64,000 nt of DNA from Acinetobacter phage vB_AbaS-Bhz15. Below, piece by piece: positions 21,441 to 25,898 of this stretch. The stretch is taken from sequence record PV067732.1; one strand, 5' to 3'. The notes under the pieces were generated by a model, which was given only the letters and a program-made list of their open reading frames with translations, searched no databases and was not told the origin of the DNA. The stretch's first letter is position 1. Each line of letters opens with the position of its first letter. The position numbers and the translations under genes are program-made.

Positions 21441-22949
21441 ATGTCTAATTTTTATTTAGTTGTTGAACAGTCAGGTGATCGCATTCAAGAACGTTATGTT
21501 GAAGATGGCATTGAAAAAATTCGTGAAATTCCATATGAACCTACTCTTTTTATTCATGCTAAAGATGGCACAAACACAAAATATAAAGACATCTATGGTA
21601 AGCCATGTATGCCAAAACGATTTGGATCTATTCGTGAAGCAAAAGACTGGATGCAAAAAACTCGTGGTATTGTAGAAATCCTTGGCATGGATGACTTTAG
21701 ACTTGCATACATTTCAGATATTTATGGCAAAAAGGAAATTACTTACAGTCGCGATGCTATTCGTGTTGCTAACTGTGACATTGAGGTAACTGCAGGTGAA
21801 TTCCCAGATCCAACTTTTGCAAAGTATGAAATTGATGCTATTACACATTATGACTCAATTGAAGACAAGTATTTTGTATTTGATTTGCTAAATTCTGCTC
21901 GAGGACGTGTTACTAAATGGTCCAAAGAACTTGCAGCAAAATCAATTGAAGAAGGTGGTGATGAAGTGCCACAACATATTTTGGATAAAGTAGTGTATCA
22001 ATCTTATGAAACTGAACGTGAAATGTTATTGGCCTACGTTGAGTTCTGGGAAAAACACACACCTGTTATTTTCACTGGATGGAACGTAGAAGGTTTTGAT
22101 ATTCCATACATTGTCAATCGAATCAAAAACGTTTTAGGCGTTTCAGGCATGTCCCGTTTAAGTCCATTTGGTAAGATTACATCAAAAGTTATTACAAACA
22201 TGTACGGTGATAAAGAAATTTTCAACATTTCTGGAGTAATGATTCTCGATTATCTAGATTTGTATAAAAAGTTTGCTTTCACGTCTCAGCCATCATATAA
22301 GCTTGATTATATTGCAGAGTATGAAGCTGGGATCAACAAATTAGAATATGACGGCCCAATCGATAAACTACGTGGATCAAATCATCAACGTTACATCTCA
22401 TATAACATTATTGACGTGTACTGTGTTCAAGCAATTGATGCAAAACGTGGATTTATTAATCTATCAATTTCAATGGGTTATTATGCACGAATGAACATTG
22501 CAACAGTAATGAGTCCAGTAAAAACCTGGGATGCAATTTTGTTCAACTCTTTAAAAGCTGATCATTTAGTTTTACCCGAAAGTAAACCAAATATTCGCCA
22601 ATCGTATTCAGGAGCATATGTTAAAGAACCTAAACCTGGTGCATACAAATATGTTGTATCATTTGATGTAACATCACTATACCCATCGATTATTCGTCAA
22701 GTTAATATCAGCCCAGAAACTATTGCCGGACAATTTGCGCCTCCAAAGTTATCTGATTTTATTAACAAAATTGCGCCTAGTCCATCAGAAGAATTCTCAT
22801 GTTCACCTAGTGGTATGATGTATTTGAAAACTAAACAAGGCATTATTCCACAAGAAATTACTAAAGTGTTCTTTCAACGTAAAGAATGGAAGAACAAAAT
22901 GATGGCTGCAAAACGTAATGCAGAATTGATTAAAAAATTAATCAAATAA
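21441..22949 (+). CDS. 43: DNA polymerase gp43, N-terminal segment (43A: exonuclease domain plus first part of the polymerase)
   Basis: Collinear with T4 gp43 residues 1 to ~475 (exo motifs FDIE, YN..DV; ...FFQRKEWKNKMMAAKRN matches T4 FAQRKEHKGYMLAAQRN), then a stop. Confidence 0.92.
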   Translation: MSNFYLVVEQSGDRIQERYVEDGIEKIREIPYEPTLFIHAKDGTNTKYKDIYGKPCMPKRFGSIREAKDWMQKTRGIVEILGMDDFRLAYISDIYGKKEITYSRDAIRVANCDIEVTAGEFPDPTFAKYEIDAITHYDSIEDKYFVFDLLNSARGRVTKWSKELAAKSIEEGGDEVPQHILDKVVYQSYETEREMLLAYVEFWEKHTPVIFTGWNVEGFDIPYIVNRIKNVLGVSGMSRLSPFGKITSKVITNMYGDKEIFNISGVMILDYLDLYKKFAFTSQPSYKLDYIAEYEAGINKLEYDGPIDKLRGSNHQRYISYNIIDVYCVQAIDAKRGFINLSISMGYYARMNIATVMSPVKTWDAILFNSLKADHLVLPESKPNIRQSYSGAYVKEPKPGAYKYVVSFDVTSLYPSIIRQVNISPETIAGQFAPPKLSDFINKIAPSPSEEFSCSPSGMMYLKTKQGIIPQEITKVFFQRKEWKNKMMAAKRNAELIKKLIK

Positions 22950-22951
22950 AT

Positions 22952-22981
22952 GTTTACTTTTGATAGGACTATTGTTATAAT
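22952..22981 (+). promoter_or_regulatory. early promoter starting 3 nt after the 43A stop; -10 inside an 11-bp-arm palindrome (first element of the gene-43 insertion)
   Basis: GTTTAC-N18-TATAAT; arms GATAGGACTAT / ATAGTCCTATC. Confidence 0.6.
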
Positions 22982-23009
22982 AGTCCTATCAACTACAGAG
23001 AAGTATATT

Positions 23010-23300
23010 ATGATCACTCAATCTAAATTAGCATTTAACACAGCAGCTCCAGTAATTGACACTCGTTCTACTCGTTCAATGGATGCAAAAATTACATTAG
23101 GCATTCTTGCTCTAGAATTTAAAGGCAGCAATATTAAATTAGTAATTGATCCACGTGATCGTGAAACAAATAAACAAAAGGTAGTTGAAATTGAACGTAT
23201 TGTTCATCGTTTCCAAGATACTAAAATCACTGAAGAAAATCTTAAAGCTCTGACAAATGAAATTCTTCCGATCGCAGTAACAATGTATAGTATCGTTTAA
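23010..23300 (+). CDS. hypothetical protein (first gene of the gene-43 insertion)
   Basis: ATG 23010 downstream of the promoter at 22952-22981. Confidence 0.4.
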   Translation: MITQSKLAFNTAAPVIDTRSTRSMDAKITLGILALEFKGSNIKLVIDPRDRETNKQKVVEIERIVHRFQDTKITEENLKALTNEILPIAVTMYSIV

Positions 23301-23315
23301 AACTTATATCTTTCA

Positions 23316-23343
23316 TAAGGGACTTCGGTCCCTTTCTTTTTCT
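23316..23343 (+). terminator. rho-independent terminator
   Basis: AGGGACTTCGGTCCCT plus TTCTTTTT. Confidence 0.65.
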
Positions 23344-23352
23344 CTAAAATTT

Positions 23353-23382
23353 GTTTACTTTGCTTTTTGATTATGATATAAT
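23353..23382 (+). promoter_or_regulatory. T4-type early promoter
   Basis: GTTTAC-N18-TATAAT. Confidence 0.55.
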
Positions 23383-23782: not shown

Positions 23783-23803
23783 CTGAATATTGTCGAGTAT
23801 GAT

Positions 23804-24118
23804 ATGAATATTGAAAGAGATGTAATAATCACTCCTGAAGGAGAAACATTTATTAATGTGTGGCCATTAAGTGCAATTCATTATAATGGTACTTGTAATG
23901 CTGAACTATCCGCTGAATTTATTCATAAAGCATTGAAATTTAAAGATGGTGAAGATATAATTTCATTTATAAATGATTTTGTTACTAATGGATTGAATAG
24001 TATTATTGGCTTGCCAAATACTCCTTCAACTATATATGATATTATGAATATTTTTGAAATGGCTTCTCGTGAGTGTGAAGCTAGATTTCCTGAATTTAGA
24101 CTGGTGTTAAATAAATGA
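23804..24118 (+). CDS. hypothetical protein (insertion)
   Basis: ORF after the structured GC-rich leader (repeat copy A). Confidence 0.4.
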   Translation: MNIERDVIITPEGETFINVWPLSAIHYNGTCNAELSAEFIHKALKFKDGEDIISFINDFVTNGLNSIIGLPNTPSTIYDIMNIFEMASRECEARFPEFRLVLNK

Positions 24119-24432
24119 GAGTATATAAATCCATTGAAGAGTTTGATGAAATTCAAGGTTGTCAAACAACATTATTTACTATAGGCGAAATTGATGAAAA
24201 GTTCCACCTTTCATGGATGCCTAATGTCCTTGAAGCCATCACATTGCCTCGCTATTCAGGATATTTTAATACATTTGACATGTGCCGTAAAAATGTAGAA
24301 ACTGTGCTCAATGCACGCTGCTCCAGCCAATCAGATATTAATACAGTCATACAGTTAATGAATGAATCTGTTCGCAAAGAATTGGAAATAAATCGTTTAT
24401 TATTTCAATGTTTTAGGGAGATAGGCCTATGA
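24115..24432 (+). CDS. hypothetical protein (insertion)
   Basis: ORF; start overlaps the upstream stop (ATGA). Confidence 0.4.
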   Translation: MRVYKSIEEFDEIQGCQTTLFTIGEIDEKFHLSWMPNVLEAITLPRYSGYFNTFDMCRKNVETVLNARCSSQSDINTVIQLMNESVRKELEINRLLFQCFREIGL

Positions 24433-24626
24433 ATATTTTTAGTCAAATTCGTATTGCTAATGAGAATGCAGAAAATTTTTCTGAAACTGCTGCATTATGG
24501 TATCGGGTTGTTGTAGGTGTAGGTATATGCATTCCATTGTTGTTTATTGTTGGGTTCATTACCGGTGCATTGATGTTCAAGAATCCTCTAGCTGCAGGTT
24601 CTGAGCTTGTCAACGCAATGTTCTAA
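24429..24626 (+). CDS. small membrane protein (insertion)
   Basis: Hydrophobic core VVGVGICIPLLFIVGFITGALMF. Confidence 0.35.
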   Translation: MNIFSQIRIANENAENFSETAALWYRVVVGVGICIPLLFIVGFITGALMFKNPLAAGSELVNAMF

Positions 24627-24663
24627 TTAGTGTTACAACTTAGTTACCACTAAGCTTATATCA

Positions 24664-24691
24664 GGGATATGATAAAATGTTATCATATCCC
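24664..24691 (+). promoter_or_regulatory. perfect 12-bp-stem hairpin about 35 nt upstream of the 43B start codon
   Basis: GGGATATGATAA-AATG-TTATCATATCCC. Confidence 0.5.
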
Positions 24692-24725
24692 ATTTGAGTC
24701 AATAAACCCTATCTTTGGAGATTAT

Positions 24726-25898
24726 ATGAATCTTGATTTTAGTCGAGACTTCACCGAAAGTGAAATTGAATACCTCAAATCTCTTTCACAAGAAGAACTC
24801 AATATATTCGAAACACAATGTGAAAATTACATCACATTATGTGATACAAATCAAATTAACCGAAAGCTATTAATTAACAGTTTATATGGCGCACTCGGTA
24901 ACATCTATTTTAGATTTTACGATCTTAGAAATGCTGAAGCTATTACAATCTTTGGGCAAATGGTTCTTCAATGGACTGAACGAAAGATTAATGCATACTT
25001 AAACGAACTATGTGGAACTACAGATCATCCATATGTAATTTACGGTGACACAGATTCTCTTTACATTGAATTGAGTCCATTAATCGAAAAAGTTGGCATC
25101 GATAAATTTTCATCAACTGAAAAGCTTGTTGACTTTTTAGATGCAGTAGCTTCGAAGAAAATCGAACCAGTTATTAATGATGGGTTTAAAGAGATGTGTG
25201 AATATCTCAACAACTATGAACAATTGATGTTTATGGATCGTGAAGCTATTGCATGCCCACCACTTGGTTCTAATGGCATTGGCGGATTCTGGCGTGCCAA
25301 GAAACGATATGCACTTAATGTCTATGACATGGAAGGTACACGTTTCAAAGAGCCATACTTAAAAATCATGGGCATGGAAACTCAACAATCATCAACGCCT
25401 AAAGCGGTCAAAGATGCATTGTTAGAAAGTATTCGTATTATGCTCCAAGAAGGTGAAAAACCATTGCAAGAATATTTCAAGAAATTTGAAAACGAATTCA
25501 GAAATCTTGATTATAAAGTAATTGCTGGTGTTCGTTCTGCAAATAACATTGCAAAATATGATGTGAATGGATTCCCGGGTCTTAAATGCCCAAGTCATGT
25601 CCGTGGTGTTCTTACATACCGACGTGCAATTAAGAAATACGATAACTTGCCAGATATCTCAGAAGGCGAAAAGGTAATGATCTTGCCTCTTAAACCAGGA
25701 AATCCATTTGGTGACAAGTGTATTGCATGGCCATCAGGTAATGAATTGCCAAAAGAAATTCGTGCAGATGTTCTGAAGCATATGGATGTCATGGACTTAT
25801 TTGGCAAAACATACAAAAAACCTCTTGAAGGTATGTGTGAATCTGCAGGTATGCAAGCTGAAAAACGTTCGTCATTGATGGATATGTTTGATTTTTAA
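24726..25898 (+). CDS. 43: DNA polymerase gp43, C-terminal segment (43B: palm/thumb)
   Basis: MNLDFSRDF...INRKLLINSLYGALGNIYFRFYDLRNAEAIT...YGDTDSLY...KKRYALNV...KCIAWPSG...DMFDF is collinear with T4 gp43 from ~residue 485 to the C-terminus. Own ATG with GGAGA SD. Confidence 0.9.
   Translation: MNLDFSRDFTESEIEYLKSLSQEELNIFETQCENYITLCDTNQINRKLLINSLYGALGNIYFRFYDLRNAEAITIFGQMVLQWTERKINAYLNELCGTTDHPYVIYGDTDSLYIELSPLIEKVGIDKFSSTEKLVDFLDAVASKKIEPVINDGFKEMCEYLNNYEQLMFMDREAIACPPLGSNGIGGFWRAKKRYALNVYDMEGTRFKEPYLKIMGMETQQSSTPKAVKDALLESIRIMLQEGEKPLQEYFKKFENEFRNLDYKVIAGVRSANNIAKYDVNGFPGLKCPSHVRGVLTYRRAIKKYDNLPDISEGEKVMILPLKPGNPFGDKCIAWPSGNELPKEIRADVLKHMDVMDLFGKTYKKPLEGMCESAGMQAEKRSSLMDMFDF

Follow-up and report, generated by a model that had tools for sequence, protein, structure and literature searches.

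A bicistronic DNA polymerase gene 43, split at the fingertip and with a variable spacer, in Acinetobacter phage vB_AbaS-Bhz15

The gene 43 locus

The sequence considered here, which we call the window, is a stretch of 64,000 nt from Acinetobacter phage vB_AbaS-Bhz15 (PV067732.1), a T4-like phage of the genus Hadassahvirus, and the locus in question is its DNA polymerase gene (gene 43), which is present at positions 21441-25898 as two cistrons, 43A and 43B, separated by a spacer of 1,776 nt. The region is 99.2% identical to that of AB-Navy71, and 98-99% identical to those of Maestro, Morttis, Minot and others. Cistron 43A (21441-22949, + strand, 502 aa) ends in ...IKKLIK and a TAA codon at 22947-22949. 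Cistron 43B (24726-25898, + strand, 390 aa) begins MNLDFSRDF at an ATG at 24726, ahead of which is a Shine-Dalgarno (SD) sequence of its own (GGAGA, 24717-24721). The spacer contains five open reading frames (ORFs), which we denote i1 to i5, three promoter elements (two complete early promoters of the T4 type and an extended -10 box) and two intrinsic terminators. Most of this layout had been described in an initial annotation of the DNA, and the + strand ORF listing returns the same coordinates for 43A and 43B, with five ORFs between them; the SD sequence and start codon of 43B, and the status of the two halves as independently translated cistrons with neither intron nor intein, likewise stand.

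Upstream of 43A, where the gene regA is a neighbor common to the window and its GenBank relatives, a stem-loop and T-run followed by TGTGGTATA (21374-21415, + strand; repeat family D8) form a terminator/promoter cassette of the promoter early stem-loop (PeSL) type. All features of the spacer are on the + strand. The TAA codon of 43A is followed after 2 nt by early promoter P1 (22952-22992; GTTTAC(22952)-N18-TATAAT(22981), with the -10 box in the form TGtTATAAT), which lies within a palindrome of 13-15 bp (22960-22992; fold z = -6.1), much as the initial annotation had it. Next are i1 (23010-23300, 96 aa, phrog_21960, with no assigned function), terminator 1 (23317-23344, with AAGGGACTTCGGTCCCTT as its hairpin at 23317-23334 and then a T-run), and early promoter P2 (23353-23382, GTTTAC-N18-TATAAT), so that the annotated second promoter is also present. 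Gene i2 (23410-23634, 74 aa) precedes the second of the two annotated terminators (23655-23684), which is followed by P3, the extended -10 box TGtTATAAT (23691-23699); the pair (23655-23699) is again of the PeSL type. Copy A of a GC-rich repeat (23673-23782) comes before i3 (23804-24118, 104 aa), i4 (24115-24432, 105 aa, phrog_26620) and i5 (24429-24626, 65 aa, phrog_24434), the last of which encodes a small protein with one hydrophobic span. Genes i3 and i4 (24115-24118) and i4 and i5 (24429-24432) overlap by ATGA, and so the three genes are probably coupled in translation as one unit.

The spacer ends with a 12-bp stem-loop, GGGATATGATAA-AATG-TTATCATATCCC, which carries TGATAAAAT (24664-24691; fold z = -5.1), and with the translation initiation region of 43B (24700-24728, A(A/T)CCC...TTGGAG-N5-ATG). 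The latter was compared between the window and the loci L002, L004, L013, L018, L019 and L024. The approximately 28 nt before the 43B start are conserved across seven Acinetobacter lineages, although the sequence just upstream is unrelated among them, being a hairpin, the end of an ORF or a promoter. The 12-bp hairpin is itself lineage-specific, and Acj9, 133 and Asfd_1 carry unrelated hairpins at the same place. A longer in-frame form of the 43B ORF begins at ATG 24669, within this hairpin, but no ortholog supports it. The window also contains a MotA-box-like candidate, AAGCTTAT-N13-TAAAAT, at 24651-24678.

When aligned with T4 and RB69, 43A and 43B are collinear with the N-terminal and C-terminal parts of an intact gp43, as the initial annotation had claimed, and the Pfam profiles show the same continuity: 43A matches DNA_pol_B_exo1 and positions 18-144 of DNA_pol_B (the first third of the profile), and 43B resumes at profile position 144. 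Cistron 43A encodes the N-terminal domain, the 3'-5' exonuclease with its motifs, the first segment of the palm, in which motif A (DVTSLYPS) is found, and the first of the two long helices of the fingers. The second of these helices is in 43B and bears motif B (KLLINSLYG); 43B also encodes the palm, where motif C (DTDS) lies, as well as the thumb and a C-terminal tail (SLMDMFDF). In the alignment, 43A ends opposite RB69 ~H504 (T4 ~M501) and 43B begins opposite RB69 ~L514 (T4 ~P511), and motif B (the RB69 K560 region) is 47 residues downstream of the split. With the limits of the RB69 fingers domain, which we take to be residues 469-572, the alignment places the split at the fingertip, where the two long helices are joined, and not in the palm, where it had initially been located. 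The junction is also not free of a gap, as had been stated, since approximately 10-15 fingertip-loop residues of T4 and RB69 have no counterpart in 43A and 43B. The cut removes the variable loop of the fingers hairpin, where chain continuity is dispensable. Both halves are under strong purifying constraint, as the ratio of nonsynonymous to synonymous substitution rates (dN/dS) with respect to KARL-1 is 0.067 for 43A and 0.068 for 43B.

The 43A stop and the 43B restart occur at the same place in the window, KARL-1, Acj9, Acj61, ZZ1 and Ac42, in all of which 43A has 502 aa, and the MxLDF start of 43B recurs; the same is true of dozens more genomes. In phage 133 and in Aeromonas phage Asfd_1 the split lies within 1-7 residues of that in the window. 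The split is common to every Acinetobacter T4-like lineage examined (seven lineages, with inserts of 1.8-4 kb), and its intercistronic segment ranges from 1,776 nt in the window through ~1.9 kb (ZZ1), ~2.0 kb (KARL-1 and Kimel), ~2.4 kb (Acj9), ~2.5 kb (Ac42) and ~2.9 kb (phage 133) to ~4.0 kb (Acj61), compared with 58 nt in the 44RR-like Asfd_1. Stand-alone 43B proteins of 388-393 aa, which start MxLD(F/L/Y) and have identities down to 49%, are frequent in metagenomes. No intact gene 43 closer than ~60% amino-acid identity was found, the nearest being that of the RB69-like Pseudomonas phage PspYZU05, and among relatives with an intact gene 43 there was no "empty site" at a useful distance from which the boundaries of the insertion could be read.

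The spacer and its small genes

The promoter motif of the spacer is far from a chance match. The pattern GTTTAC-N17-19-TATAAT has 22 sites in the window, compared with 0.07 expected, and 21 of them are on the + strand; P1 is one copy of an 18-copy family of promoter cassettes of 40 nt. Two terminator-plus-promoter pairs (23317-23382 and 23655-23699) divide the spacer internally, and it is at such cassettes that the window departs from PhT2, a phage of the same genus. From 21440 to 23340 (43A, P1, i1 and terminator 1) the two phages are ~100% identical; from 23340 to 23640 (P2 and i2) identity is 55-76%; from 23640 to 23800 (terminator 2, P3 and the GC-rich element) it is 91-97%; from 23840 to 25040 (i3-i5 and the first ~300 nt of 43B) it is 64-88%; and beyond 25040 (the rest of 43B) it returns to ~100%. 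The breakpoints (~23340, ~23640 and ~23800-23840) coincide with terminator/promoter cassettes, the first of them with terminator 1, and the modules i2 and i3-i5 are swapped between the two phages. Within the i3-i5 block, before 43B, PhT2 has an extra 364 nt with one ORF that the window lacks. Judged from these comparisons, the early genes of the spacer form a hyperplastic region, in which modules are apparently exchanged by recombination at PeSL-type promoter/terminator cassettes.

The insert has a core, consisting of i1 directly after 43A together with i4 and i5, and a variable part, to which i2, i3 and the extra ORFs of relatives belong; other variable modules in relatives include a phrog_624 "DNA binding protein" and a zinc-ribbon ORF. 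The core genes are under purifying selection (dN/dS with respect to KARL-1 of 0.125 for i1, 0.164 for i4 and 0.173 for i5), and i4 is conserved in KARL-1, Acj9, ZZ1, Acj61 and the metagenomic relative L024. The corresponding value is 0.26 for i2, which has 44% amino-acid identity to KARL-1 (and 55-76% nucleotide identity to PhT2), and 0.83 for the poorly conserved i3, which has 25% amino-acid identity to KARL-1. None of the five ORFs has a Hint, intein, LAGLIDADG, GIY-YIG or HNH domain (Pfam at E <= 0.1, PHROGs), in agreement with the annotated lack of any resemblance to a homing endonuclease.

Gene i1 is the most constant of these neighbors. Its family, phrog_21960, is found in 67 phage records, all of them Acinetobacter T4-likes with one copy each. 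A full HMMER search retrieved 25 representatives among 1.84 billion proteins, all orphans of ~90 aa, and a word-indexed homolog search gave 5 clusters only. In all four distant representatives for which the context was retrieved, i1 is immediately 3' of 43A (which is complete at 504-505 aa in three, and represented by its 3' end on the remaining contig), and it keeps this position in each of the Acinetobacter-type split lineages examined, among which polymerase identity falls as low as 59%; outside the window its loci are L008 11793-12074 (- strand), L026 6001-6282, L027 6001-6276 and L024 5001-5279. The ORF after 43A in phage 133 is a structural homolog of i1 (BFVD probability 1.00). Its start overlaps the 43A stop (ATGA), and in the metagenomic relative L026 the gap is 3 nt, so that i1 is translationally coupled to 43A in both, with no promoter between the two genes in either. 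Among the loci compared, i1 was found neither near an intact gene 43 nor in the Aeromonas split phages. The AlphaFold2 (AF2) model of i1 is a three-stranded β-meander with three helices (mean predicted local distance difference test score, pLDDT, 75); it has no fold match in the PDB (best E = 0.7), and in the BFVD it retrieves only its own orthologs.

One explanation of this constancy is that i1 is a dedicated partner of the split polymerase, i.e., an assembly or stabilizing factor or a regulator of gp43A/gp43B. Its fixed place, its coupling to 43A in 133 and L026, the purifying selection, its absence where gene 43 is intact, and the lack of relatives elsewhere among the 1.84 billion representative proteins would all fit such a role. 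We nevertheless think this rather unlikely: i1 has only 38% identity to its ZZ1 counterpart, compared with 79% for gp43, and the Aeromonas split polymerases manage without it. Alternatively, i1 could be the oldest passenger of the insert, and we favor this because i1 diverges much faster than gp43. The constant position of i1 directly 3' of 43A may be the one new point here.

A probable two-chain polymerase and the origin of the split

We consider it very probable that the locus encodes the PolB replicase of the T4 family in its bicistronic (43A/43B) form, in which the split is inherited and the spacer has turned into a small hyperplastic region. The two products would be translated separately, each from its own start site, and then assembled into one enzyme. 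By analogy with 44RR and 25, gp43A and gp43B would form a heterodimer; the association would have to be non-covalent because the catalytic carboxylates lie on different chains, and with the catalytic residues divided in this way neither half would be a polymerase by itself. A two-subunit enzyme is also the generally accepted view, since, according to PMC2988022, which cites Petrov et al. 2010, gp43A and gp43B of Aeromonas phages co-purify with polymerase activity. For the window, such a complex is implied by the purifying selection on the two halves and by the distribution of the catalytic motifs over both. The transcription pattern that we infer is one in which 43B mRNA arises most likely by read-through from the early promoters of the insert, possibly supplemented by a proximal promoter in the 24644-24691 region, and 43B would then be translated from the conserved GGAG site.

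Four points weigh against this interpretation. Two intrinsic terminators stand between the strong promoters and 43B, which bears on how enough 43B mRNA would be made. The assembly and stoichiometry of the enzyme are taken from the Aeromonas phages. Several GenBank records annotate the locus as a single coding sequence (CDS) interrupted by an intron. Finally, in a neighbor-joining (NJ) tree of gp43 (100 bootstraps) the deep branches have 3-11% support and the split forms are not one clade, and therefore a single ancient split is not demonstrated.

Since the same cut is found in seven Acinetobacter lineages, and nearly the same cut with a 58-nt spacer in Aeromonas, the split predates the present insert; on the evidence of these alignments it is inherited and older than the Acinetobacter T4-like genera, and the present insert did not create it. 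The initial annotation had gene 43 bisected here by a cassette-mediated insertion. Of this proposal, the cassettes survive, being present at the 5' and internal module boundaries where the PhT2 breakpoints also fall, while the bisection by the present insert does not. The order of evolutionary events that we infer could be otherwise if the Acinetobacter and Aeromonas fingertip splits arose independently, with the two lineages converging on a loop that tolerates a cut. In the NJ tree, a group that contains both intact proteins (T4, RB69 and KPV15) and split Acinetobacter forms excludes the Aeromonas split form, and gp43 of the window has 62-64% identity to these three intact proteins but only 53% to Asfd_1; moreover, other split points exist in the same region, for example in Synechococcus ACG-2014f, and an engineered Pfu polymerase split at the fingertip is fully active (PMC3061061). 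These observations have to be set against cut sites that agree to within a few residues, similar N-termini of 43B (MNLDFSRDF and MDFELYRDF), similar sequences in the ~15 nt ahead of the SD sequence (..CCCATCAATTTGGAG.. and ..CACCAATTGAGAGG..), and the lack of support for the deep nodes of that same tree, and we give convergence an appreciable but minority weight. In ACG-2014f itself (L006, 2968-3496), gp43 is in two pieces that are cut directly before motif B (...RRGVL/VRKITLNSAYG) with two small ORFs between them, i.e., at a different split point in the same domain.

As to what made the inherited split, the Asfd_1 spacer is compatible with a minimal promoter/stem-loop cassette having been the original splitting element: it consists of TTGATA-N17-TATATG with a TG extension, within a stem-loop, and then an SD sequence, with no ORF. 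However, the promoter-less junctions between 43A and i1 in phage 133 and L026 count against a promoter as the ancestral 5' boundary of the Acinetobacter forms. The splitting element might instead have been a free-standing homing endonuclease gene (HEG) in the fingertip DNA that was later lost or replaced, with the present ORFs as later cargo. Such a mechanism exists, as shown by nrdA-A/mobE/nrdA-B of Aeh1 (PMC2988022), and gene 43 of phage 25 carries a seg-like gene as a precedent, although that gene may have invaded an already split gene (PMC2988022). The divergence from PhT2 reaches ~300 nt into 43B, resembling a co-conversion tract, and the inserts of relatives hold nuclease-like or DNA-binding ORFs (phrog_624 in Acj9, Acj61 and Ac42; a weak Pyr_excise match in L026). 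On the other hand, the insert in the window has no HEG domain (Pfam, PHROGs), and the 58-nt spacer of the 44RR-like phage has only a promoter-like stem-loop and an SD sequence; an endonuclease origin is quite improbable in our estimation.

Inheritance of two cistrons also has to be distinguished from readings in which the halves are rejoined. The records of AB-Navy71, Maestro, Minot and others carry the note [quoted passage not shown], and those that join 43A and 43B into one CDS include OL770260 (AB-Navy71), MT949699 (Maestro), MW388001-4 and others, whereas other records of the same genus label the locus as a split DNA polymerase. Under the former annotation, the spacer would be a group I or group II intron that is spliced to give one continuous gp43, and relatives with a group I intron in gene 43 are indeed known, namely L026 and, according to PMC2988022, phage 25. 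With Rfam, however, neither Intron_gpI nor a group II family matches 22700-24900 at E <= 1, and the whole window has no match at the gathering score either, although the same search detects the group I intron in 43B of L026 (RF00028, 57.9 bits, E = 6e-14). In addition, the 43A stop is conserved across genera, as are the SD sequence and ATG of 43B; the spacer has its own promoters and terminators along with five ORFs, of which three evolve under purifying selection; and the insert varies from 58 nt to 4 kb in length, and also in content, while the ends of the cistrons are fixed. Splicing of this kind is very unlikely, and the "intron" label is unsupported, because of the Rfam result, the conserved 43A stop and 43B start, and the dN/dS of ~0.07 in both halves. 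The label matters for annotation, since it is in records of therapeutic Acinetobacter phages that the cistrons are joined in this way.

We attach practically no weight to the two readings that remain, i.e., that the halves are rejoined by a split intein, or that a sequencing error or a pseudogene lesion accounts for the stop at 22947-22949, and found no point in their favor. The combined length of 43A and 43B is that of an intact gp43 minus a short loop, with no room for intein halves, and Pfam finds no Hint or intein domain. The stop, which the initial annotation had named as a possible artefact that would overturn its reading, recurs in over 50 genomes that were sequenced independently, with a 43A of 502 aa in six lineages, and the low dN/dS in both halves also argues against a lesion. 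Apart from these readings, L026 (ENA ERZ15185492 NODE_49) is a metagenomic relative that shares the 43A-i1-...-43B arrangement and has its intron at 8595-8920, directly after motif B (NSLYGA/GNIYFRYYDLRN), which recalls Aeromonas phage 25.

Neither the split of gp43 nor the proposed cassette mechanism is new, since both are already published, and the arrangement is already annotated in GenBank. Split gp43 was reportedly described by Petrov et al. (2006, J Mol Biol 361:46) and by Petrov, Ratnayaka and Karam (2010, J Mol Biol 395:457). As these studies are summarized in PMC3061061, phages 133, 44RR (44RR2.8t), 31, 25 and 65 have, like the window, a bicistronic gp43 that is split in the fingertip into separate cistrons, with an intercistronic distance of between 2 bp (Aeromonas) and 3 kb (Acinetobacter). 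The published fingertip split illustrates how modular family B polymerases are and how plastic the replication genes of T4-type phages can be. The ZZ1 genome paper likewise describes gene 43 as split (PMC4177764), and GenBank labels the halves "43A" and "43B" in Acj9, Ac42 and 133, while the records of ZZ1, KARL-1, PhT2, Kimel and others use "split DNA polymerase". These GenBank relatives have the same gene pair with cistrons of 502 and 390 aa and depart from the window in nothing essential, PhT2 and AB-Navy71 being 92-99% identical to the window. Phage 133 resembles the window in having a multi-kilobase insert of small ORFs, the first of which is the i1 homolog. The contents of the inserts differ (five ORFs in the window, eight in phage 133, none in 44RR, and a HEG and an intron in phage 25), as does what follows 43A, which is an early promoter in the window and a translationally coupled ORF in phage 133.

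The cassettes of the spacer also have close published counterparts. PeSL elements (Arbiol et al. 2010, PMC2839356; Comeau et al. 2014, PMC4122927) are repeated σ70-like promoters with a stem-loop or terminator that border ORFan modules, as in the window, and there too the differences between close relatives break at the cassettes. PeSL-like sequences occur between g43A and g43B of 44RR and 25, and recombination at PeSL cassettes in T4-type phages yields excised mini-circles (Arbiol et al. 2010, PMC2839356). The commonest cassette of the window differs in that its palindrome spans the spacer and the -10 box, whereas the PeSL has a terminator hairpin upstream of -35. The locus is a clear model of an essential core gene that hosts a hyperplastic region with module exchange at promoter/terminator cassettes.

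Two-chain family B enzymes that reassemble to an active form are also known from the PolB of Methanobacterium thermoautotrophicum and from the engineered split Pfu (PMC3061061). The latter is cut near the fingertip as well, but it is artificial and translationally coupled, while the former is split in the palm, with its genes 85 kb apart (PMC3061061). Aeh1, which had been cited as a precedent for a split gene 43, is not one: its gene 43 is a single CDS of 2,760 nt, and its split gene is nrdA, with mobE. The nrdA-A/mobE/nrdA-B system is similar in that an essential enzyme is divided into two cistrons by inserted DNA and its halves reassemble (PMC2988022), although the gene is different and the insert is a single HNH homing endonuclease.

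The GC-rich repeat

The GC-rich element of the spacer is ~110 nt long and, as had been noted in the annotation, is repeated: its two copies (A, 23673-23782, + strand; B, 59554-59663, - strand) are 89% identical, in opposite orientations, and are the only two islands of at least 60% GC in the window. A TGtTATAAT -10 box stands at the start of each. The element occurs about five times per genome in 51 Hadassahvirus and Lazarusvirus records, and the position of copy A is conserved. A structured RNA or tRNA was rejected as an explanation of the repeat, which folds no better than shuffled sequence (fold z of -0.3 and -1.3, no Rfam match, no tRNA). Copy B lies between genes and is oriented towards a bidirectional terminator, an arrangement that is compatible with a putative leftward small RNA of ~140 nt.

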